A stretch of DNA of 64,000 bases from Candidatus Sulfomarinibacteraceae bacterium (GCA_963796455.1 CAWCLO010000008.1:1-64000); one strand, 5' to 3'; positions 5,166 through 54,417 are shown, counted from the first letter of the stretch. Notes: generated from the letters alone by a model not told the origin. A program made the numbers and translations.

Positions 5166-6453
5166 ATGATGGCAACCGAGTTCAACGCATTCGAGATGGC
5201 ACAACGACAATTCGACGCAGTGGCCGACAAGCTACAGCTCGATGAAGGCATCCGGGATCTTTTGCGCTGGCCGCAGCGCGAGTTTCATTTCACCGTGCCG
5301 GTGAGGATGGATGATGGTTCGTTCCGGGTCTTCAAGGGCTTTCGTGTCCAGCACAACGACGCCAGAGGTCCGGCCAAAGGTGGTATCCGCTTCCACCCAC
5401 AGGAAACGGTCGACACGGTGCGCGCACTGGCCACCTGGATGACCTGGAAATGTGCGGTCGTCGACATTCCGCTTGGCGGCGGCAAGGGTGGCGTGATCTG
5501 CGATCCTCACGACCTCTCACCGCGCGAACAAGAAACGGTGTGCCGTACGTGGGTGCGCCAGGTTTCTCGCAACGTCGGCCCGGTCCAGGATGTGCCGGCA
5601 CCGGATGTGATGACCAACCCCCAGCACATGGTCTGGATGATGGACGAGTACGAAAAGCTCGCGGGTGGTCATTATCCGGGGTTCATCACCGGCAAACCTG
5701 TGGAGGTTGGTGGATCCCTGGGACGCACCGAGGCAACCGGCTTTGGCGTGATCTACACGGTTCGCGAGGCCTTGAAGCGTTTCAAGATCCCGGTCCAGGG
5801 AGTTCGGGCCTCGATCCAGGGCTTTGGCAACGTGGCCCAGTTCGCCGCGAAGAAATTGATCGAACTCGGCGGCCAGGTGGTGGCGGTGTCCTGTTGGGAC
5901 AATGATGACCACTGTGCCTACACCTTTGCCAAACCGGACGGGATCGACACCGAGTTCCTGCTCTCGATCACCGATCGTTTTGGCACAATTCACAAGGAGA
6001 AGGCTGAGGAAGCCGGTTACGAAGGTTCTCGAGGGCGACGCCTGGCTCGATCAGGAAGCAGAGATTCTCATTCCGGCGGCGCTCGAGAACCAGATCACCG
6101 GTGACAACGTCGGTCGTATCAACGCCAAGGCCCGGATCGTCGCCGAGGGCGCAAATGGTCCGACGACTCCGGAGGCCGATGCGGTGCTCAAGGAACGGGG
6201 AATCTTCGTCATTCCGGATTTCCTCGCCAACGCCGGCGGCGTCACCTGCTCCTATTTCGAACAGGTGCAGTGCAATACGAACTTCTTCTGGCCCAAGGAA
6301 GAGGTGCTCGACCGGCTCGACCAGAAGATGACCAGAGCATTTGATGCAGTCGCCGATCTCGCGGAAGAGACCGGCGAATTCATGCGTGACGCCGCCTATA
6401 TGATCGCCATTCAGCGGGTGGCGACGGCGTGTCATCTGCGCGGTTGGGCGTAG
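5166..6453 (+). pseudogene. gdhA: Glu/Leu/Phe/Val dehydrogenase (glutamate dehydrogenase) with a +1 frameshift near 6021 (real or sequence error)
   Basis: GPAKGGIRFH, GGGKGG, DVPAPDV, GRTEATG in ORF 5166-6104; [24 protein letters not shown] in ORF 5902-6453. Confidence 0.85.
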
Positions 6454-9084: not shown

Positions 9085-9939
9085 CACTGATGTCCTCGAG
9101 TGAGTCTCGGACAACGATCGGGGACAGCGGCGGGGAACGGTAGACAGCGTCAGCGAACAGCGATCGGTGATCAGCGGCAGAATTCAGCTGTCAGCGACAG
9201 CGATCAGCGCTCACGTTTTTGGGTTCAACAGCCGCCAGGTCATCGCACGGACCTGATCGAAGGCGTTCATTGCTTCACTGGCACCATTCCGGCTGATCGC
9301 ACCGGCGTGGGCGAGGAGCATTAAGTGGCTGTCGACCTCTTTGGCCGAGGCGTAGGCGATTCTCCAGTGGTTCAACCGGTCTCTACCGAATCGGCCGTGC
9401 CCTTCTGCCAGATTCGCTGGGACTGAACTTGCCGACCGGATCACCTGATCGGCTATGGACTTCAGAGGAGCTGGAACCCTCATCACGAGCTTGATCGCGA
9501 TTCCTGCTGCTTCGAGTGCTTTCGAGTGGGCAACGAGGTTGGTGGTCGTGGCTGCGTTGGACATGGTCACCTCCGGGTCGTTCATGCCCATATCCACAAG
9601 CCGGTGTGGTGGCCGATGTCAAGGATGCCCTGCACCCTGCCTGTCCTTGACATCGGCCGCCCACCGGCTACCCCTTCTGATGAACGACCCGGAGGTGGCC
9701 ACGCCGTCGCCTGGACTCCTGATCGCTGCCGCTGGACACTGAACGCTGTCCCTGATCGCCGATCGCTGTCCCTGTCCGCTGTTACCTGTCGCTGTCGCTG
9801 GAAACTGTCGCTGCCGCTGCAACGCGGACGCGGACACGGGCACGTGCCAACCGCCAATCGGATATGCCAAAAACCAGCCCATGACCCTTGTGTCTTCACG
9901 TGGGCAAGGTCGGCCGTGGATTTGTAATGGGCAGGAGTA
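9085..9939 (-). mobile_element. Putative full-length TIR-bounded element carrying a four-helix-bundle gene
   Basis: Ends CACTGATGTCC (9085) and, on the reverse strand, TACTCCTGCCCA (9939) match the termini of copies at 34573, 36527 and 55688; CAGCGA-rich and TCGCTG-rich arms. Confidence 0.7.
9211..9564 (-). CDS. Four-helix-bundle protein (23S rRNA IVS protein/Avd-like family)
   Basis: 'DQVIRSASSVPANLAEGHGR...IAYASAKEV' matches the family QxxRAAxSxxxNIAEG..R signature; GGAGGTG RBS before ATG 9564. Confidence 0.9.
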   Translation of the reverse strand: MSNAATTTNLVAHSKALEAAGIAIKLVMRVPAPLKSIADQVIRSASSVPANLAEGHGRFGRDRLNHWRIAYASAKEVDSHLMLLAHAGAISRNGASEAMNAFDQVRAMTWRLLNPKT

Positions 9940-10004: not shown

Positions 10005-10412
10005 TCAGGTTGCGGCCACCGTTTCAACTTCGAAGTTCGGTGGGTTCTCGAGGGTTTTTTTGACCTTGCATTGCGACGCGACCCGGATCAGCGCGCTGTG
10101 ATACTTCTCCGGAAAATCGGTCGGGACCTCGATGGTGATCTTGACGTCGGTGAGGGTTTTCTTTTCTCCCTCCATGGTCCAGCTCTGGGTGATCCGGATT
10201 CCCTCATGCGGGATCTGCCGCTTCTGGCAGAAGCCGAGAACGTAGATCCCAGAGCAGGTTGCGAGCGAGGCGAGAAAAAGGGCGAATGGTTCGGGTGCTG
10301 ATCCGTCGCCACCGGACTCCGGATCCTGGTCGGTTTCGATCGTGAAACCGTCGTAAATGGCGTTGACCTTTTTGCCGCCGGGAAAGCTCACAGTCATCGA
10401 ATTGTTGCTCAT
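10005..10412 (-). CDS. OsmC family protein
   Basis: TDQ..GGDGSAPEPF.LFLASLATC and QCKVKKTL two-Cys motifs. Confidence 0.9.
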   Translation of the reverse strand: MSNNSMTVSFPGGKKVNAIYDGFTIETDQDPESGGDGSAPEPFALFLASLATCSGIYVLGFCQKRQIPHEGIRITQSWTMEGEKKTLTDVKITIEVPTDFPEKYHSALIRVASQCKVKKTLENPPNFEVETVAAT

Positions 10413-10480
10413 CGGTCCTCCTTCGTCGGGAGGGATTCTAGCCGATATTTGCTTTGAGGCGATGGGGCAATGAGGTGGTG

Positions 10481-10602
10481 GGCTATAGGCCATTAGCTGC
10501 AGGCAATAAGCTATAGGCTATAAGCTATAGGCTATAAGCTATGGGCTATGGGCTATGGGCTATGGGCTATGCGCTATGGGGGATGGGCTATAAGCTATTG
10601 GC
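10481..10602. repeat. Heptamer arm (GCTATRR)n, left arm of the inverted repeat around tlyA
   Basis: GCTATAG/GCTATAA/GCTATGG units. Confidence 0.95.
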
Positions 10603-10603
10603 C

Positions 10604-11350
10604 GTGAGGAAAAAGCAACGTCTCGACGTTATTCTCTCTGAGCGCGGTCTTGCACCGTCACGGGCGCGAGCACAGTCACTGATACTGACGGCGAAAGTTC
10701 GGGTCGACGGCAATATCGAAACCAAGGCCGGCACTCAAATCGATCCGGCGGCCAATATCGAGATAACCATCCCGGACCACCCCTATGTTTCCCGCGGCGC
10801 TCTCAAGCTCGTCGCCGCTCTCGACGAATTCGCGATCTCTCCGGAAGGTCTCGATTGTCTGGACATCGGCGCCTCGACGGGCGGCTTCACCGACGTCATG
10901 TTGCAGCGCGGCGCGCGACGGGTCATCGCCCTTGACGTGGGACGTGGCCAACTCGACTGGCGACTCCGCACCGATGACCGTGTGGTGGTGATGGAAGGAG
11001 TCAATGCGCGCCACCTCGAGACCGATGAACTGCCGTTTGCTGTAGCGCTCGCCACCATCGATGTTTCGTTCATTTCGCTGACCCTCGTGGTGCCCTCGAT
11101 CATTCCCCACCTGCTCCCCGGGGCGTGGTTGGTGTGCCTGGTGAAACCCCAGTTTGAAGCCGGGCGGGACCAGGTCGGAAAAGGAGGTATCGTTCGCGAC
11201 GAAACGATCCGCCGCACCACCATCGATCGAACTGTTCAGAGCATTTCGGAGCTTGGTCTGGACTTTTCCGGAACCATCGAGTCGCCGATTCGAGGCCAGA
11301 AAGGCAATCTCGAAGAACTCGCCGTCTTCAAGAAACCAATACCAGCTTGA
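10604..11350 (+). CDS. tlyA: TlyA rRNA (cytidine-2'-O)-methyltransferase
   Basis: S4 domain (RLD..L..RGL..SR..A), YVSRGALKL, DIGASTGGFTD, DVSFISL, KPQFE, GNxE; start GTG inferred. Confidence 0.95.
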   Translation: MRKKQRLDVILSERGLAPSRARAQSLILTAKVRVDGNIETKAGTQIDPAANIEITIPDHPYVSRGALKLVAALDEFAISPEGLDCLDIGASTGGFTDVMLQRGARRVIALDVGRGQLDWRLRTDDRVVVMEGVNARHLETDELPFAVALATIDVSFISLTLVVPSIIPHLLPGAWLVCLVKPQFEAGRDQVGKGGIVRDETIRRTTIDRTVQSISELGLDFSGTIESPIRGQKGNLEELAVFKKPIPA

Positions 11351-11352
11351 AT

Positions 11353-11450
11353 CTCATAGCCCCATAGCCCCATAGCTCATAGCCCCATAGCCCATAGCCC
11401 ATAGCCCATAGCTTATAGCCTATAGCTTATAGCCTATAGCTTTTAGCCCC
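11353..11450. repeat. Heptamer arm (YYATAGC)n, right arm of the inverted repeat around tlyA
   Basis: CCATAGC/TTATAGC/CTATAGC units. Confidence 0.95.
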
Positions 11451-11476
11451 AGCCCGCAGCCTCACTGCCTGTGTGC

Positions 11477-14400
11477 TCACTCGTCGAGTTCGATCCTGAC
11501 CAGGCGATGCTCCCACGTCAGTGAGCCGAGGATGTTGCCGTCCGGCAGCAGGGTGATGGCGGTCAGCCCGGGGAGATCCCTTTGCAAGAGCTCGGGCGGA
11601 TCCGATCCCGTCGGGTCGATGGACCACAGCTCGCCTGTTTTCGGGGCGCTGGCGGCGAGCCGACCCGATGGGAGCAGCGCCAGATAGCCCTCCTGTTGGG
11701 TGCGCCCACTCCAAGCGGGAACTTCGAGCCTGCGCACGATCCGACCGTCGGCCAAATCCACCAAAACGATGCCACCGTCGGCTGGAAGTGCCGCTGCGAT
11801 CAGCCCGCCGACCTGGGTGATCCCAACCACCGGTGCCGGGAGGTCGGCAATGAGGTCCTGCTGCTGCCAGTCGGGAGGCGTATAGCGGTAGAGCTTTCGG
11901 TTTCCGGTGTCGGCGGCCACCAGGGATCCATCACCCAACCACAAGAGACCCCTTGGTCCGAAGAGGGAGCGGCCGATCGTTTCGATCTTCCCGGACGGAT
12001 CCATGATCTGAATGCGGCCGTTCCAGGTGTCGGCGATCGCGAGCACACCGTCTCGACTGAGTGCGAGCCCGGAAGGCTCGTGAAAATTGCCGTCCGCCGA
12101 TCCTTCAGAGCCGAAATCATCGAGGCAAAGGCCGTTCTCGCTATACCAGCGGATTCGGTGGTTGAGGGTGTCGGTGACGACGAACCAACCGTCTCTCGAA
12201 ACCGCGATGCCGCGAGGTTCCTTCAGGCCCCCTGAATCCTCCGAAGACTCGGCGGCCGACCATGGAGGGGGGCACGAAGCAAGTGGCCACTCGATGATGA
12301 GACCGTCCGGTCGGACGATCCACAACGAGTCCGGTCCACCGGCCAGTTCGAGCACAGCCTCGTCGCTTGCAAGAACCCGCCGCCACGGGAGCACGGCGCC
12401 GCCACTGCGGTGGAGACCCGAGGCGTCGGCTGCCCAGAGATTCGACCCCTGCCAGGCGATCTCCTTGATTCCGTCGAGGCGACCGTTGACCGTTCTGGGG
12501 TTGAGGCCGCCTCGGCCGACCCAGACGTTCAACCCGTTGCTCCAGGCGAGCCATGGGCCGTTGGCGGCTGCCGCCACGATCGATTCTGTGGAAACCGGGC
12601 GCCAGGCTCGGTTGTCGTACCGCCAGATCCCGCCGTGGCCCCAGGCCCAGAGCGCGTCATCAGCAGTCAGAAAGCTGGCGCCCTGTATTCGAGTCGTCTG
12701 TGACCATTGTTGATCGCGCAACTGCATGACGGCGCCATCGCTGCAGATGGCCCACAACTGATTTTCGTGACGCACGGCCGATCGCGTCTCACAACCCGGG
12801 TGTGGATGGCTGACCGTCAGCGTGGCCTCGGAGTCGAGCTCGGCCACTTCGCCGTTGGACATCACGACCACAGCTCCAGTGCTGTTCCGGATCAGAGAGG
12901 AAAGAGCCGGACGGTCGATTCTCGGAAGTTCGCCCAGGAAATGGGCACCCGGCGGTAATTCGACAACAGGCTCGATGGTTCCGGTGGCCATGTTGTCGGC
13001 GGGCATCACTCGATAGATAGCAGCCTCGCCCTGCTCGGCGATCTTGACCAATCCCGGGATCCCCCGCAGCGGGTCACCGCTTGCGAGACCATAACGTTTG
13101 CGCTCGAGGTCTCCGACCACGACCCAGCCCACATCGTAGCGATCGAGCACGGCCCGGCGCGCCCGTGCGTCGCGTCCTGCGTAGAGAGTCTGAAGATCGG
13201 TGAACCTTGCTGCGATTTCGATCGGGTCCTGGCCCCGTTGTTTGAGGTGCCACTCCCAGCCGACGACGGTCGGTTGGCCGGTGTGCATGGTGATCCGCGT
13301 GTGCTGGCTGTAATAGGGCCCGGCGGCCTCGGCGACCGCCTCTTCCGGGCGGGCCGCACCCTGGAGAGCGTGTGCCAAAAACCAGGTCTCGGGATAACGG
13401 AACCTGAGAAAGGCCTGGCCGTCGAGGGTCGGCCTCGGAGAAACGACCCGCGGCTGCAACCAGCCCTGAGCGACGCCCAGTGGGAGATTCACCATCGCCA
13501 CGATCTGCAGCGGAACCCAGGCCCCGATCACCAGGATCCGGCGTCTGCCACGGGTTCGTAGAAGCACCAGGGTGAGGGCGGCCGCGAGGAGCAGCCACAC
13601 CCCGTTGTAAACCTTGAACACGGTGTTCATGCGGTCGATCAGGGTCCATCGCTCACAGGCGGCCACCGCAAGCACGGCAAAGGCCCCCAGCGACCAACCG
13701 AAGCGGGTCATCCGGTCGCGGGTTGTGACCATGACGGTTGCGAAGAGCGCCGCGGTCGCGAGGGCGAATGCCGCAGCCGAAGAGTTCATCCAGAGGCCGG
13801 CGATGATGCCTGCGCCGGCGGTGGGAACGACCATCCACGATCGTCTGCCGAGCGCCAACACCGCGGCCATCGCGAGCGGGATCAGGAAGAGGCCGAAATG
13901 ACGCAGGACCGCCCACGCCGGTGCAAAATCATGCCGGGTCAGAAACAGACCGCGTTCGCCCGCCCCCGCGCTCAGGCTGGCGAGCAGTTCGACCACGAAG
14001 GGTGCGGCGGCAATCAGGCTGACTGCTGCTGCAACGACAAGATGTTGGATGCCCGGCAAACGGCGCCTGGCTGCGACAAGGGTGCCGACGCCCAGGGTGC
14101 CGCTGAATACGAAGAGGTCCCACGGATTGGTGGCCACGAGGGCCGCGGTACAGATCCCGCAGAGAATCGCGGCGATGACCCACGTTCCGTCGCGTTTTTC
14201 GACACAGACCCAACCCCAGATGAGTCCGGCTATCAGAACAGGGAGGGCGATGAAATGTCCATGGAGGTCTGCAAAGAGCGTTGTCCAGAGCGGGTATTCA
14301 TCGATCACCGGGCTTGGAAGCACCCTCGAGGTGGCCCACCACAGATCGAACCACTTTCCGTGGCGCAGATGTCCGACGAGCCACGGCCAGGCGAGGTTGC

Positions 14401-17002
14401 CGGACAAGAGGACCAGAACCGGGAGGAGGATTGCGGCGCGCCATCTCCAGCGCCGCGCGAAAAGCAGCCCGAGACCTGCGAGGGCGGCGGCGGAGAGAGC
14501 CGGAATGGTGGCCGACATGAGGTTGTAGCCGACCGCCGCGCTGCACCCGGTGACGAGGATCGGAAAAGCTGCCAGAACCTCACCAAAGTAGTAGTAGTGC
14601 AGAGGCATCCCCGCCATCCACGGTTCACCTGTCGGCCAACTGGAGGCCCGCAAAAATGAGTTGAGAAACGAAAAGTCCATCGGTTTCTCGCCCCAGAAAA
14701 TCGCCGGGTTGGAGGCGCGGACAAGAAGGAAGAGCAGACCGACGGACAACGCCACCGAGACCACCATCATGATGTTGCGGCGGCGGCGGACAAGGATGGA
14801 GACCGCCTCTTCCCATCGTGCGGTCAGGGCGAGGGAGCCGGCCGAGAGAACGAGGATGAAAGTCCAGCTTGCCGTGGAGGGACCGGTCGGCCACATGCCG
14901 AGTTCGTTCCCGAACCACATCAACCAGGATGGGACGATCCAGCCGGTGGCGATGGAGAGCCCGACCCCGGCATCAGGCCACTTCCCGACCACCGGCAAGA
15001 GGAGGAACCATGAGGAGGCCGCGAGACCGGCGAAAACAAACAGCCACAGCCCCAGGTCGATCACCTGGCGGAGCCCGGTGGGCACCGGCGGTATGGCGGG
15101 AACTTCTTCGACGACGCGCCGCTCGAAATCGAGAGCATCGAGCATCCCGAGATTGGGCAGCGGTCTCTCGACCCTCTCGGCGAGCAGTTCCGGATCGATC
15201 TGTGTGGTGCGGCGGAAGATCAGAACCTGCGGAAAATCGTAGTTGACAAAGCTCTCGTCGGCACGCTGGACTGGCCATCTGAGACCAAAAAGACGGGGAC
15301 CTCGGCGTGCCCGCGTCAGAAGCTCGAACCCGGCTTCGCCGGCGAACAGGAGGCGATAGAGGCGCCCGGTCTTTGGGAATCGTTCGGGGTTGGCGAAAAT
15401 CGTCCGGGTCACCCGATTCGATGTCAGAACAACCCAGTCTGCCCGGGCAAGGTCCTCACACCATCGGAGAACCTTTTCATCGTCGTCCGGCAGGTCATAA
15501 GAAGGAAGGCTGTATGTCGTCACGGAGCCTTCCCTGAGGTGCAGTCCGATCGTCTCGTCCCAGCTTTCGAAAGCAACCGTCTGGCCTGATTCGAGCATCG
15601 GTTGCAGCCACTTCGTGGCCGTACCGTGCGGGTGAGGCTCGACAAACGCCCACATGAATGCGAGACCCCATACGATCGTGCCGGCGGCAACGGTCAGAAC
15701 GGCCCTTCGGCGGTAGCCACCGGGCAGACGGGAGAGCCACCACGCAGCAAGCAGGGCCGCCGGAACCACCAGCGGTTCCCAATATCGAAGGTATTTGACG
15801 TAGAGGGTCGACAGGCGGACCGACATCGGAACCAGCCAGGCCAGAACGATCAGCAGGAGGATGGTCGAGTTGTTCCAGCGACCGGAGATCCAGCGTCGCC
15901 ACCTCGACCCGAGGACCCGCAGACCCGCGGCTGCAGCAACGAGAACGGTGAGCAGCAACAGCGGCCCCCAACCCCAGAGGGCGAGTTCACGCAAGGGGTA
16001 GAGCACCGGCAAGGTGTTGACAAAGACCCGTACGTACGGCAGATCCGCCTCACCCATCACCATGCGCACCTGTTCGCCGACGCCCGCGAGATAGGCCGGG
16101 TTGAGCCCGCCGCCCACCAGCGTCGTTGCGATGAATCGACCGGGTGCGGTGCCGCTACCGAAACCAGTCAGCGCGGCCACCTGGAACAGGACGAAAACCG
16201 CGGCCAGAAAAGCGAACCCGATCAGGAGACGGCGCTGTTTTCCCGGTCGTGTCGCCGAGAGGTGCAGCAACACGGCGCCAAGTGCGGCAGCAAGCATCGG
16301 CGCAAGTGGCGGACGAGCGCCCGTGAATGCCCATGGCTGACACAACCAAAAGGCAAATCCGCCGACTGCCACAGCCACCGCGCCCAAGCGCGTTGCGTCG
16401 ACCAAACCACGTCTGCGGGCCACCAACAGGAGAGCCATGGCCAGAGGTAAGCCGAGCGCCAGGGACGCCACCTTGACTGCAAGTGAGGCGCCGACGGCAG
16501 CGCCGGCTCCCGCCGCCGCGGCTGCACGACCACCGCTGGCCAACCAATAGCAGGCCGCCAGGGCGAGCATGATCCAGGCCGTGTGGTGTGCTTCGACCGT
16601 TGCAAAGTGCGACTGTTGGAGATCGAGGGGAACCCAGGCGACCAGAATCAGAAACAGTTCGCCGGTGCGGCGGCCCCACGCACGATGGGCCAGAATCCAG
16701 CCGAGGATGAGAGCGAGCATCGACGACAACAACGAAAGGACGCGGCCGGAAACCACCAACCCACGCAGGTGTTCGCCCTTGGCGAGAACCATGGTGGTGG
16801 CGTGCACGGCCTGGAAATGGAGCGACCCATAAGCAAAGAACTCGGGGTTGGAGAACCACCCGTCAAGCCGTTCGGTGACAAAGCCGACCTGACGCTCGTC
16901 GGGGTGGACCGTCGTGGACACGACTCCGGCGTCCCACCCCTGGAGGAGCAGGCGGAGGCCGAGTGCAATCAGTAGGAGAAACCAGGTGCGCTTACGCAGC
17001 AT
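11477..17002 (-). CDS. Large membrane protein: GT-C-like N domain + DUF2298 (YYY) domain + NHL beta-propeller
   Basis: HPDE..FFAYGS, QSHFATVE; GEKPMDF..HYYYFG, ADLHGH, RMNTVFK; EPRGIAV..DTLNHRI and EPSGLAL..DTWNGRI NHL repeats. Confidence 0.8.
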   Translation of the reverse strand: MLRKRTWFLLLIALGLRLLLQGWDAGVVSTTVHPDERQVGFVTERLDGWFSNPEFFAYGSLHFQAVHATTMVLAKGEHLRGLVVSGRVLSLLSSMLALILGWILAHRAWGRRTGELFLILVAWVPLDLQQSHFATVEAHHTAWIMLALAACYWLASGGRAAAAAGAGAAVGASLAVKVASLALGLPLAMALLLVARRRGLVDATRLGAVAVAVGGFAFWLCQPWAFTGARPPLAPMLAAALGAVLLHLSATRPGKQRRLLIGFAFLAAVFVLFQVAALTGFGSGTAPGRFIATTLVGGGLNPAYLAGVGEQVRMVMGEADLPYVRVFVNTLPVLYPLRELALWGWGPLLLLTVLVAAAAGLRVLGSRWRRWISGRWNNSTILLLIVLAWLVPMSVRLSTLYVKYLRYWEPLVVPAALLAAWWLSRLPGGYRRRAVLTVAAGTIVWGLAFMWAFVEPHPHGTATKWLQPMLESGQTVAFESWDETIGLHLREGSVTTYSLPSYDLPDDDEKVLRWCEDLARADWVVLTSNRVTRTIFANPERFPKTGRLYRLLFAGEAGFELLTRARRGPRLFGLRWPVQRADESFVNYDFPQVLIFRRTTQIDPELLAERVERPLPNLGMLDALDFERRVVEEVPAIPPVPTGLRQVIDLGLWLFVFAGLAASSWFLLLPVVGKWPDAGVGLSIATGWIVPSWLMWFGNELGMWPTGPSTASWTFILVLSAGSLALTARWEEAVSILVRRRRNIMMVVSVALSVGLLFLLVRASNPAIFWGEKPMDFSFLNSFLRASSWPTGEPWMAGMPLHYYYFGEVLAAFPILVTGCSAAVGYNLMSATIPALSAAALAGLGLLFARRWRWRAAILLPVLVLLSGNLAWPWLVGHLRHGKWFDLWWATSRVLPSPVIDEYPLWTTLFADLHGHFIALPVLIAGLIWGWVCVEKRDGTWVIAAILCGICTAALVATNPWDLFVFSGTLGVGTLVAARRRLPGIQHLVVAAAVSLIAAAPFVVELLASLSAGAGERGLFLTRHDFAPAWAVLRHFGLFLIPLAMAAVLALGRRSWMVVPTAGAGIIAGLWMNSSAAAFALATAALFATVMVTTRDRMTRFGWSLGAFAVLAVAACERWTLIDRMNTVFKVYNGVWLLLAAALTLVLLRTRGRRRILVIGAWVPLQIVAMVNLPLGVAQGWLQPRVVSPRPTLDGQAFLRFRYPETWFLAHALQGAARPEEAVAEAAGPYYSQHTRITMHTGQPTVVGWEWHLKQRGQDPIEIAARFTDLQTLYAGRDARARRAVLDRYDVGWVVVGDLERKRYGLASGDPLRGIPGLVKIAEQGEAAIYRVMPADNMATGTIEPVVELPPGAHFLGELPRIDRPALSSLIRNSTGAVVVMSNGEVAELDSEATLTVSHPHPGCETRSAVRHENQLWAICSDGAVMQLRDQQWSQTTRIQGASFLTADDALWAWGHGGIWRYDNRAWRPVSTESIVAAAANGPWLAWSNGLNVWVGRGGLNPRTVNGRLDGIKEIAWQGSNLWAADASGLHRSGGAVLPWRRVLASDEAVLELAGGPDSLWIVRPDGLIIEWPLASCPPPWSAAESSEDSGGLKEPRGIAVSRDGWFVVTDTLNHRIRWYSENGLCLDDFGSEGSADGNFHEPSGLALSRDGVLAIADTWNGRIQIMDPSGKIETIGRSLFGPRGLLWLGDGSLVAADTGNRKLYRYTPPDWQQQDLIADLPAPVVGITQVGGLIAAALPADGGIVLVDLADGRIVRRLEVPAWSGRTQQEGYLALLPSGRLAASAPKTGELWSIDPTGSDPPELLQRDLPGLTAITLLPDGNILGSLTWEHRLVRIELDE

Positions 17003-37077: not shown

Positions 37078-37196
37078 GCATCTAGCATCTAGCATCTAGC
37101 ATCTAGCATCTAGCATCTAGCATCTAGCATCTAGCATCTAGCATCTAGCATCTAGCATCTAGCATCTAGCATCTAGCATCTAGCATCTAGCATCCA
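37078..37196. repeat. Perfect heptamer tandem repeat (GCATCTA)x16 plus one variant unit
   Basis: Directly visible. Confidence 0.98.
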
Positions 37197-48259: not shown

Positions 48260-48322
48260 TCGCTATCGCTATCGCTATCGCTATCGCTATCGCTATCGCT
48301 ATCGCTATCGCTATCGCTATCG
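48260..48322. repeat. Hexamer tandem repeat (TCGCTA)x10
   Basis: Directly visible. Confidence 0.97.
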
Positions 48323-52633: not shown

Positions 52634-53428
52634 ATGAGTGATCAAGAAGCTCGGATCGCCGTGGTCTCGGGGGCCTCGAGCGGGATCGGTGCCGCCACGG
52701 CTCGGTTGCTGGCCGCCAATGGTTGGCAGGTGGTGCTGGTTGCCCGGCGCGAGAACCGGCTCGAGGAGATCGCCGAAGAGATTGCGGCCGCCGGCGGAAC
52801 TGCCAGATCCGAGGCCCTCGATGCCGCCGATGGCGATGCGGTCCTCGATATGCAGGAACGGGTCCGGAACGAACTGGGTGTGCCTTCGCTGATCATCAAC
52901 GGCGCCGGCGCGGGTGTCTGGCGGTTTATCGAAGAGACCTCTCCCGAAGAGATCCGACAGATGATGGGGGCGCCCTATCTGGCAGCGGCGAATCTGAGTC
53001 ATGCTTTCATGGCGGACATGTTGGCCGCCGGACGCGGCCATCTCGTGCACGTTGGTTCTCCCGCATCGGTCATGCCGTGGCCGGGGGCGACGGCCTATAC
53101 CTGCTCACGATGGGCCCTGCGTGGTTTGCACGAGGCGCTGTGCATGGATCTGGTTGGCACTGGCCTGCAAAGCTCGTTGGTCTATTTCGGTGAGGTGTCG
53201 AGCGAGTACTTCGATGCCAACCCGGGCTCGCACGAACACATGCCCTCACTCGCTTCGTGGGTCCCGATCTCCACCTCGGAAGAATGCGCTGAGGTCATTC
53301 TCGGGGTCCTTCAGCGACCGCGAAGGGTCACCTTCTATCCATTTGCCCTGCGCATCATGGCGTGGCTGGCGGCACTCTCACCCGCGCCGACCCGCTGGCT
53401 GATCGCGCGGACAGGGCGAAAGCACTGA
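52634..53428 (+). CDS. SDR family oxidoreductase
   Basis: SGASSGIG, ARR, NGAG; atypical YTCSR in place of YxxxK. Confidence 0.9.
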   Translation: MSDQEARIAVVSGASSGIGAATARLLAANGWQVVLVARRENRLEEIAEEIAAAGGTARSEALDAADGDAVLDMQERVRNELGVPSLIINGAGAGVWRFIEETSPEEIRQMMGAPYLAAANLSHAFMADMLAAGRGHLVHVGSPASVMPWPGATAYTCSRWALRGLHEALCMDLVGTGLQSSLVYFGEVSSEYFDANPGSHEHMPSLASWVPISTSEECAEVILGVLQRPRRVTFYPFALRIMAWLAALSPAPTRWLIARTGRKH

Positions 53429-53523: not shown

Positions 53524-54417
53524 TTAATGTATCGAGGTCAGACGGTACTCTGCCAGAAGCCTTGCGTCGATCAGATCCGACTCGCTCCCCTCGATGCGGA
53601 AGTAGTGGCGGCCGATGGTATAGGCTCGCTCGATCCGTCGTTGAACCTCGGATGGGTCGTAGAGCAGGCGATAGACGTGCCCGACCTGAACATAGTCGAT
53701 CATCCGAAGATCGTCATCGCTGTCAAAGTCTCCGTCCCGTCCCGCAGAAATGATCTTGAGTCGAATCCACCTGCCGTGCTCGAGATCGGGGATGTCCTGG
53801 GTGAAAAAGGTAGCCTGCAGCCCCGCTTCGAGATCTGATTGAACCTGGGGGTCGTCGAACGCAGCGGCTCCGGGAACGACCGGCTGAAAAGAGACACGGT
53901 AGGGCCGTCCCCATCCGTCGGCGGCGCGAATCTCGTACATTTCGCGCACCGACGGCGGTGCCATCCCGGTGTCTGCGCCAAAGAAAACCAAGGGGATCCA
54001 GCCCCGGATGCGTGCGGTCGACGAGGGAGCCAGCACCTCCGCCCAGTCACCCTCGAAGGGAGGCACTTCTTCCTCACGAACCGAGAATCGGGATGCTGCC
54101 GATCCAATCTCGTGCATGCGGTGAATCGTCTCCAACTCGGAGGAACGGCCTTCGTCACCAAAGGCCATCCAAACGATGGTCGTGCGCAGATCCGGGCCGG
54201 GACCGGTGGTGCGGAGTCGTATGAAACCGATGATCGGAAGCACCAGAATCAGACCGTAGACCACGACCCTCCAGCCGCCGGCTCGAATCTGAGACATCAA
54301 TGATGGCTTCTCCGGGCGGGCCAGACTGGCGCTGAAATCCCAGCCGCAGTGAGCACAGATTGTCGCTCCCGCGGGGAGCTCCTTGCCACATCCATCGCAG
54401 ATGATTGCATCACTCAT
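53524..54417 (-). CDS. Zinc-ribbon + TM + GspG-like C-terminal motif protein
   Basis: CDGC..CAHC; TM helix; DGWGRPY and SAGRDGDF..DD. Confidence 0.6.
   Translation of the reverse strand: MSDAIICDGCGKELPAGATICAHCGWDFSASLARPEKPSLMSQIRAGGWRVVVYGLILVLPIIGFIRLRTTGPGPDLRTTIVWMAFGDEGRSSELETIHRMHEIGSAASRFSVREEEVPPFEGDWAEVLAPSSTARIRGWIPLVFFGADTGMAPPSVREMYEIRAADGWGRPYRVSFQPVVPGAAAFDDPQVQSDLEAGLQATFFTQDIPDLEHGRWIRLKIISAGRDGDFDSDDDLRMIDYVQVGHVYRLLYDPSEVQRRIERAYTIGRHYFRIEGSESDLIDARLLAEYRLTSIH

Follow-up and report, generated by a model that had tools for sequence, protein, structure and literature searches.

The question raised by this locus is why a single gene, tlyA, runs against its immediate neighbors between two mirror-image repeat arrays, and whether it has been, or is still being, turned round through these arrays. 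We analyzed a window of 64,000 nucleotides (GCA_963796455.1 CAWCLO010000008.1:1-64000), and all positions given below are counted from its first nucleotide. The source genome (G000), from an uncultured acidobacterium living in sediment, comprises 5.02 Mb in 10 contigs at 60% G+C, and the window lies on its contig C8. Along the window, PhoH2 (plus strand) is followed by a four-helix-bundle gene (minus), OsmC (minus), tlyA (plus), the YYY gene (minus), ispA (minus), xseA (minus), and further minus-strand genes. ORF and profile annotation bore out an earlier note on this DNA, according to which tlyA is the sole plus-strand gene between 9.2 and 26.7 kb. The features of the locus are as follows.

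10005..10412, minus strand: OsmC-family gene (NCBIfam OsmC-related matches), now divergent from tlyA
10481..10602, plus strand: left arm, a (GCTATRG)n heptamer array, G-rich on the plus strand (TRF, repeat search, alignment)
10508..10566, plus strand: perfect core of the left arm, 59 nt (sequence, repeat search, alignment)
10591..10596, plus strand: repeat-borne hexamer TAAGCT (form TAnnnT), 7 nt upstream of the GTG of tlyA (sequence)
10604..11350, plus strand: tlyA, intact, 248 aa, TIGR00478 at 221 bits (cut-off 185.8); reversed with respect to the ancestral orientation
11353..11451, minus strand: right arm, an inverted copy of the left-arm array, G-rich in the sense of the YYY gene (TRF, repeat search, alignment)
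11384..11442, minus strand: perfect core of the right arm, 59 nt (sequence, repeat search, alignment)
11477..17002, minus strand: YYY gene (chlor_Arch_YYY domain, TIGR03662 at 331 bits), 1841 aa, now convergent with tlyA

The product of tlyA is a TlyA-family rRNA cytidine-2'-O-methyltransferase. The family match is full-length and above cut-off, S4 and methyltransferase domains are both present, and residues 2-238 align to TlyA of M. tuberculosis (PDB 7S0S, E 7e-56), which is again a full-length match. With the 23S-specific equivalog NF049952 the protein stayed below the cut-off (182.6 versus 250). The automatic ORF call placed the start at ATG 10541, inside the array; the alignment with relatives begins at GTG 10604. 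Comparison with relatives yielded dN/dS ratios of 0.10-0.13, but synonymous sites are saturated and these values average over a long history rather than describing selection after the flip.

An alignment of the left arm to the reverse-complemented right arm revealed homology over some 100 nt, which covers roughly 10499-10602 in the left arm and 11353-11451 in the right. This homology ends 9 nt upstream of GTG 10604 and 2 nt downstream of the stop codon TGA (11348-11350). The arms do adjoin the start and stop codons, as had been noted, and the unique DNA between them consists of the tlyA ORF plus 11 nt. The identity of the arms is unevenly distributed. The core is identical at 59/59 positions, the inner 40-45 nt or so carry about eight differences including indels (~82% identity), and the outer flanks of both arms are essentially unrelated. 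A check on the sequence confirmed that 10508-10566 is the exact reverse complement of 11384-11442 over 59 nt and that the order of the variant units is mirrored (GCTATAG, GCTATAA, GCTATAG, GCTATAA, then four times GCTATGG). The two perfect repeats are 817 bp apart, and the repeat search extended the pair to 10502-10566/11384-11448 (65 nt, 97% complementary). The sequence motif (G3N4)3G3 occurs once per arm: in the left core a regular-expression search for potential G-quadruplexes located (GGGCTAT)3GGG at 10543-10566, and in the right core the motif lies on the minus strand at about 11383-11407.

A chance origin of the arm pattern is excluded. The two-unit pattern had 18 matches in the window against 0.02 expected, and 17 of these 18 fall inside the two arms. 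In the rest of the genome, the longest match to the left arm was an uninterrupted GCTATGG run of 34 nt, and no more than 21 nt were matched in the part of the arm that bears the variants. The identity of the arms is therefore specific to the pair and requires copying or exchange between its members, as the earlier note had proposed.

To define the ancestral orientation of tlyA, we compared the locus with those of relatives (MAGs of Thermoanaerobaculia, Holophagae or Acidobacteriota), in which orientation was called by tblastn of the neighbor proteins from the window. The genus set comprised 25 species genomes, 23 of them with tlyA. The YYY gene lies directly upstream of tlyA in relatives, and YYY, tlyA, and OsmC follow each other in the same direction, and PhoH2 runs the other way, in 23 of 25 genus loci and in 21 of 23 congeneric genomes. 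Only G000 and one further genome, G015, carry a reversed tlyA between unchanged neighbors. On metagenome contigs of genus level the gene was forward in 12/12 cases, and in a neighboring genus used as outgroup xseA, ispA, and tlyA were co-directional in all three informative loci, the other seven having no recognizable neighbors. The common arrangement of tlyA, co-directional behind xseA and ispA, was thus observed in the outgroup. Taken together, these data show that the forward orientation is ancestral, and the proposal that the gene has been flipped is supported: it is reversed here exactly between the arms. In an ML tree of four local genes, G000 and G015 group with forward genomes in two separate clades (SH-aLRT 97 and 99), which indicates at least two independent flips of tlyA. 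Compared with the congeneric genome G001, 34 ORFs of the window form one collinear 54-kb block, in which 32 share the orientation of the block; the two exceptions are tlyA and the ORF at 53524-54417. A comparison of the arms with those of relatives set this locus further apart, since the inverted repeat across tlyA scores 146 here and no other locus of the 34 compared exceeds 26. With a tlyA identity of ≤77%, even the closest of the sampled relatives is too distant for dating the event. A metagenome scan for contigs of the same species returned no relative above 76% protein identity. In the literature, we found no published inversion of tlyA.

Several loci of the comparative set showed peculiarities of their own. 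In G008 (locus L023, G008:C4:198113-198836), the match to tlyA is spread over two frames that overlap, and this points to a frameshift or an indel of the assembly. In G018 and G006 there are two whole YYY-tlyA-OsmC loci each, on different contigs; contamination of G006 amounts to 9%, and the duplicate loci of both genomes may represent strain mixtures. On the metagenome contig L046, tlyA directly follows ispA without a YYY gene, as in the outgroup genus; hence the group has either acquired the YYY gene or lost it in part of its members.

Reversal of a gene may separate it from its expression signals. In 29 of 35 loci, a TAnnAT hexamer of the form TA(C/G)(C/G)AT stands exactly 6 nt before the in-frame GTG or ATG of tlyA, and in locus L016 the same motif is out of frame through an assembly indel. 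From this conserved arrangement the tlyA mRNA of the genus is predicted to be leaderless. The motif is lost in G000, in its sister G010, and in three metagenome contigs; in G010, tlyA is SD-led and begins 55 nt after the YYY gene, and in G015 the motif moved along with the flipped gene. The earlier note had seen neither RBS nor promoter in the present orientation. We found none here either, and a promoter consensus scan of 10300-11600 gave no sigma-70-like site, but the lack of an RBS is ancestral for tlyA, whose mRNA is predicted to be leaderless in the genus, and was not caused by the flip. Judged from its sequence and position, the repeat-borne TAAGCT at 10591-10596 is the only candidate −10 element for a leaderless tlyA mRNA in this orientation. 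For its expression, tlyA would now rely on −10-like hexamers of this repeat-borne kind; alternatively, it may be silent. The divergent OsmC gene has an SD of its own and a −10-like TAGAAT (reverse complement of 10435-10440).

The arms are members of a genome-wide class of intergenic 6-8-nt arrays, in which the tlyA pair is an outlier. TRF listed 1009 arrays of period 6-8 with a score of at least 40 in the whole genome, and these belong to 112 unit families; runs of at least three GCTATRR units occur at 20 further places. Of the 193 arrays beginning no more than 30 nt behind a stop codon, 156 are G-rich in gene sense, 21 neutral, and 16 C-rich. A cruder test of array strand bias against the type of intergenic region gave no signal, whereas the stop-anchored test did show the bias. 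The right arm is G-rich in the sense of the YYY gene and lies 25 nt from its stop codon, which identifies it, under this gene-end rule, as that gene's own gene-end array. Same-family array pairs no more than 6 kb apart are inverted in 110 cases and direct in 117. When the 110 inverted pairs were restricted to gaps of at least 300 nt, the tlyA pair had 59 nt of exact identity and the second-longest 27 nt. Clean arrays also occur elsewhere in the window, at 37078-37194 (GCATCTA, 16.7 copies, 100%) and at 48260-48322 (TCGCTA, 10.5 copies, 100%), and near the window start (71-411) a 161-nt unit is repeated 2.1 times.

In the accessible part of their report, Rehm et al. 2015 (PMC4692102) describe G-rich heptamer SSRs of the GGGNATC type in Xanthomonas and Nostoc, which form G-quadruplexes in vitro, and mention increased stability near the repeats. 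The present arrays resemble the SSRs described there in that GGG-tract heptamers with G-quadruplex potential are found genome-wide in non-coding DNA, mostly just after stop codons and on the sense strand; the right arm, G-rich on the sense strand and 25 nt from the YYY stop, falls within the ~50 bp typical of these SSRs. They differ from them, as far as that text describes them, in their unit (GGGCTAT, next to many other families), in the bounding of an inversion by an array pair, and in the lack of a preference for four units. In this genome, perfect GGGNNNN runs of two, three, four, five, and six units number 59, 14, 6, 3, and 2, and these counts drop steadily. A search for papers on tandem repeats in Thermoanaerobaculia found none.

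To explore whether flanking repeats are tied to flips, we compared the ORFs of G000 with 880 kb of contig C10 of G001, which gave 334 genes with both neighbors collinear. Three of these 334 genes are flipped singly, and tlyA ranks first among the 334 by its flanking inverted-repeat score. At a score of at least 50, tlyA stands alone and is flipped (Fisher p = 0.009; the threshold was set post hoc and the numbers are small). Over 2618 genes of 150-500 aa, the median score was 17, and the 95th and 99th percentiles were 23 and 39.5. For tlyA, we obtained 86 with the over-long ORF start and 146 with the true boundaries, a value that is second in the genome to one unannotated ORF. Nine other high-scoring ORFs were scanned, and three of them encode IS200-type Y1 transposases and one is a four-helix-bundle gene of the 23S-IVS type; for these genes high scores are no surprise, because mobile or cassette genes are expected to bear terminal repeats. 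The two remaining flips between G000 and G001 have background scores of 19 and 15, and flips can therefore happen without repeats. Genes embraced by inverted arrays of the same family (19-27 nt exact) were compared with five congeners, and none of the three informative ones was flipped; a fourth array-embraced control (C4:1077618) had no conserved neighbors and was left out. We also considered G015 as a second repeat-bounded flip, since purine-rich arrays flank its tlyA, but these arms score only 23, which equals the genome-wide 95th percentile and is background, and this candidate was rejected.

The two flips at background score are observations in their own right. The ORF at 53524-54417 (minus strand, 297 aa, no Pfam match) is the second single-gene flip in the window and is opposed to the SDR gene at 52634-53428. 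Both genes are co-directional in G001, G005, G014, and G024, and G000 therefore has the derived state. The ORF has no flanking array pair and only a 12-nt inverted repeat (11/12; 53512-53523/54447-54458), and its score of 19 is background. The third gene that is oriented differently in G000 and G001 encodes a HAD hydrolase (G000:C10:701973-702881) and has no flanking repeat (score 15).

Which mechanism reversed tlyA? In our reading, the locus probably records a single-gene inversion by homologous recombination of the RecA type, with gene conversion, between inverted heptamer arrays that were already in place. According to this scenario, tlyA would have been flanked by two inverted arrays of the same family, and one of these would have been the array at the end of the YYY gene upstream. 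Through a crossover or a conversion tract inside the arrays, tlyA would then have been turned round and the core homogenized. The event would have been a non-programmed accident that required no dedicated invertase and cut tlyA from its former upstream context. The resulting 59-bp perfect inverted repeat, with its 817-bp spacing, may still serve as substrate for rare flipping back and forth. What is expected of an inversion by recombination is seen here: sufficient arm length, exact bounding of the segment, the opposite orientation in relatives, and a recA gene in the genome (G000:C5:100445-101230, 469 bits). In E. coli, the minimal homology (processing segment) is about 25-30 bp, and the exact inverted homology of 59 nt within ~100 nt exceeds this length. 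The contrast between the perfect core and the inner parts at ~82% identity fits a recent exchange tract in older arrays better than one duplication of uniform age. There are also observations that this reading does not readily accommodate. None of the forward-oriented relatives carries the presumed substrate, the inverted-repeat score being at most 26 in the 34 other loci; forward relatives often have a hairpin of G-rich array, loop, and C-rich array between YYY and tlyA. The ancestor assumed here needs a C-rich array right after the tlyA stop, an arrangement which breaks the strand rule and is found in 16 of the 193 gene-end arrays. No single inversion of a relative-like ancestor (YYY, G-array, loop, C-array, promoter, tlyA) that we considered yields the present layout.

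In an alternative account, which we consider unlikely, the inversion made the arms. The gene-end array of YYY is prone to G-quadruplexes, and a break or a switch of the replication template there would have inverted tlyA and left an inverted duplicate of the array beyond it, and later slippage or conversion would have shaped the arms. Such a route is known from eukaryotes and from tandem-inversion duplications, and we found no bacterial precedent for it. It would explain why both independent flips show the same order (YYY stop, G-rich array, reversed tlyA, C-rich array, OsmC) and why forward relatives usually have arrays between YYY and tlyA and no matching inverted array after tlyA. Its ancestor obeys the gene-end rule, each arm has its (G3N4)3G3 motif, and G-rich heptamer repeats of similar type form G-quadruplexes in vitro in other bacteria, as far as the accessible part of PMC4692102 describes them. 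However, a single duplication does not predict a perfect core next to diverged inner parts unless conversion followed, and these diverged inner parts are themselves inverted same-family repeats at both ends of tlyA. Somewhat less probable still is a working reversible switch, in which both orientations would be present at appreciable frequency, tlyA would be either read through from the YYY operon or silent/antisense, and 2'-O-methylation of rRNA would be phase-variable. The perfect core includes a slippage-prone four-unit run, which argues for very recent exchange; tlyA has been flipped twice independently in the genus; and in this genome, as in its sister G010, it lacks the leaderless motif of most loci, so that orientation to an outside promoter could matter. 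On the other hand, the window contains no invertase gene, the arms are generic arrays rather than a dedicated site, and with the flipped state in 2 of 23 species and comparable arms in none of the 34 other loci, there is no conserved switch. We are equally doubtful of the wider proposal that the arms form a recombinase-free, RecA-driven toggle, which repeatedly flips tlyA relative to YYY-operon read-through, and that G-quadruplex-prone gene-end arrays are a general source of whole-gene switches, of which two would have arisen at tlyA within one genus.

The orientation itself might be wrong if the assembler had crossed the 59-nt inverted repeat incorrectly and tlyA were truly forward. Inverted repeats longer than the assembler k-mer are a known source of false inversions, a forward tlyA would match 33 of 35 other loci, and the two orientations cannot be separated by sequence alone because the inner parts of the arms travel with the gene. 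We nevertheless regard such an artefact as very unlikely. Long reads seem to underlie the assembly, since its 5.0 Mb are resolved into 10 contigs that reach megabase length in spite of more than 1000 arrays and one of which, of 795 kb, contains a complete 16S gene, and a 1-nt insertion in the 91%-conserved gdh gene is typical of long-read consensus; such reads span the whole 1-kb cassette. Moreover, the arms of the G015 flip are too short to mislead an assembler, which argues that flips of this kind are real in the genus. The 21 sequencing runs listed, none of them with RNA, exist as Logan contigs of low depth (best word share 0.23). These gave pieces of 150-520 nt, some of which match the window exactly; none leads from the unique sequence outside an arm across the 59-nt core into the unique sequence inside it, and no joint with a change of strand was listed. 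Assembly from 31-mers necessarily stops at a repeat of 59 nt, and the pieces therefore speak neither for nor against flipping. The least probable of the readings considered, which we find hard to credit, lets the arms act in RNA as a stem of ~90 bp that encloses the tlyA ORF and serves processing or translation control. The minimum-free-energy fold of 10481-11451 pairs both arms (z = −8.2) and places the start and stop codons at the base of the stem. Pairing of this kind is, however, the automatic outcome of any inverted repeat; a tlyA mRNA that is leaderless, as predicted for the genus, would exclude the left arm; and the idea of RNA processing raised in the earlier note finds no support in the comparison, since an inverted repeat of this kind is absent from all 34 other loci of tlyA.

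Our preferred reading, recombination between pre-existing arrays, places the locus among known rearrangements. Chromosomal micro-inversions occur by homologous recombination between inverted IS copies, rrn operons, and REP-type elements. As in inversions between such dispersed repeats, the segment is exactly repeat-bounded and reversed relative to relatives, the arms bear signs of exchange, and recA is present without a dedicated recombinase. In contrast to them, the arms are only ~100 nt long (59 nt perfect) and consist of a heptamer microsatellite rather than a mobile element or gene, and the segment is one housekeeping ORF with almost no extra DNA. With invertons, that is, invertible promoters, and with intragenic invertons, as far as the accessible part of the PhaseFinder literature characterizes them, the locus shares an inverted repeat around a segment whose orientation could alter expression. 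It differs from the invertons described there in that the arms are generic and longer than typical recombinase sites, that a whole gene rather than a promoter is flipped, and that an invertase is not found nearby: none of the 44 ORFs scanned in the window belongs to a recombinase or invertase family. This is a well-documented but ordinary repeat-bounded inversion with unusual microsatellite arms.

The locus indicates that gene-end heptamer microsatellites, which are abundant and so far unexplained, can serve as substrates when single genes are inverted in core housekeeping regions, or can be left behind as scars, and thereby connects a class of simple repeats with local rearrangement of the genome. 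The defined 1-kb cassette could further be used for measuring recombinase-free flipping. In other bacteria, TlyA sets the susceptibility to tuberactinomycins. Should a single population contain both orientations, the methylation of rRNA by TlyA would vary heritably.

Two neighboring genes deserve a remark. The four-helix-bundle gene (23S-IVS-protein type, 9211-9597) lies between inverted arrays of the CAGCGAT type (9144-9813). Its position between PhoH2 and OsmC is particular to this genome, and a search with the four-helix-bundle protein showed it to be absent from the other genus loci. The glutamate dehydrogenase gene (gdh, 5166-6453) is split into two frames by the 1-nt insertion at about 6022 relative to G001, and this split represents either a consensus indel error or a fresh pseudogene.
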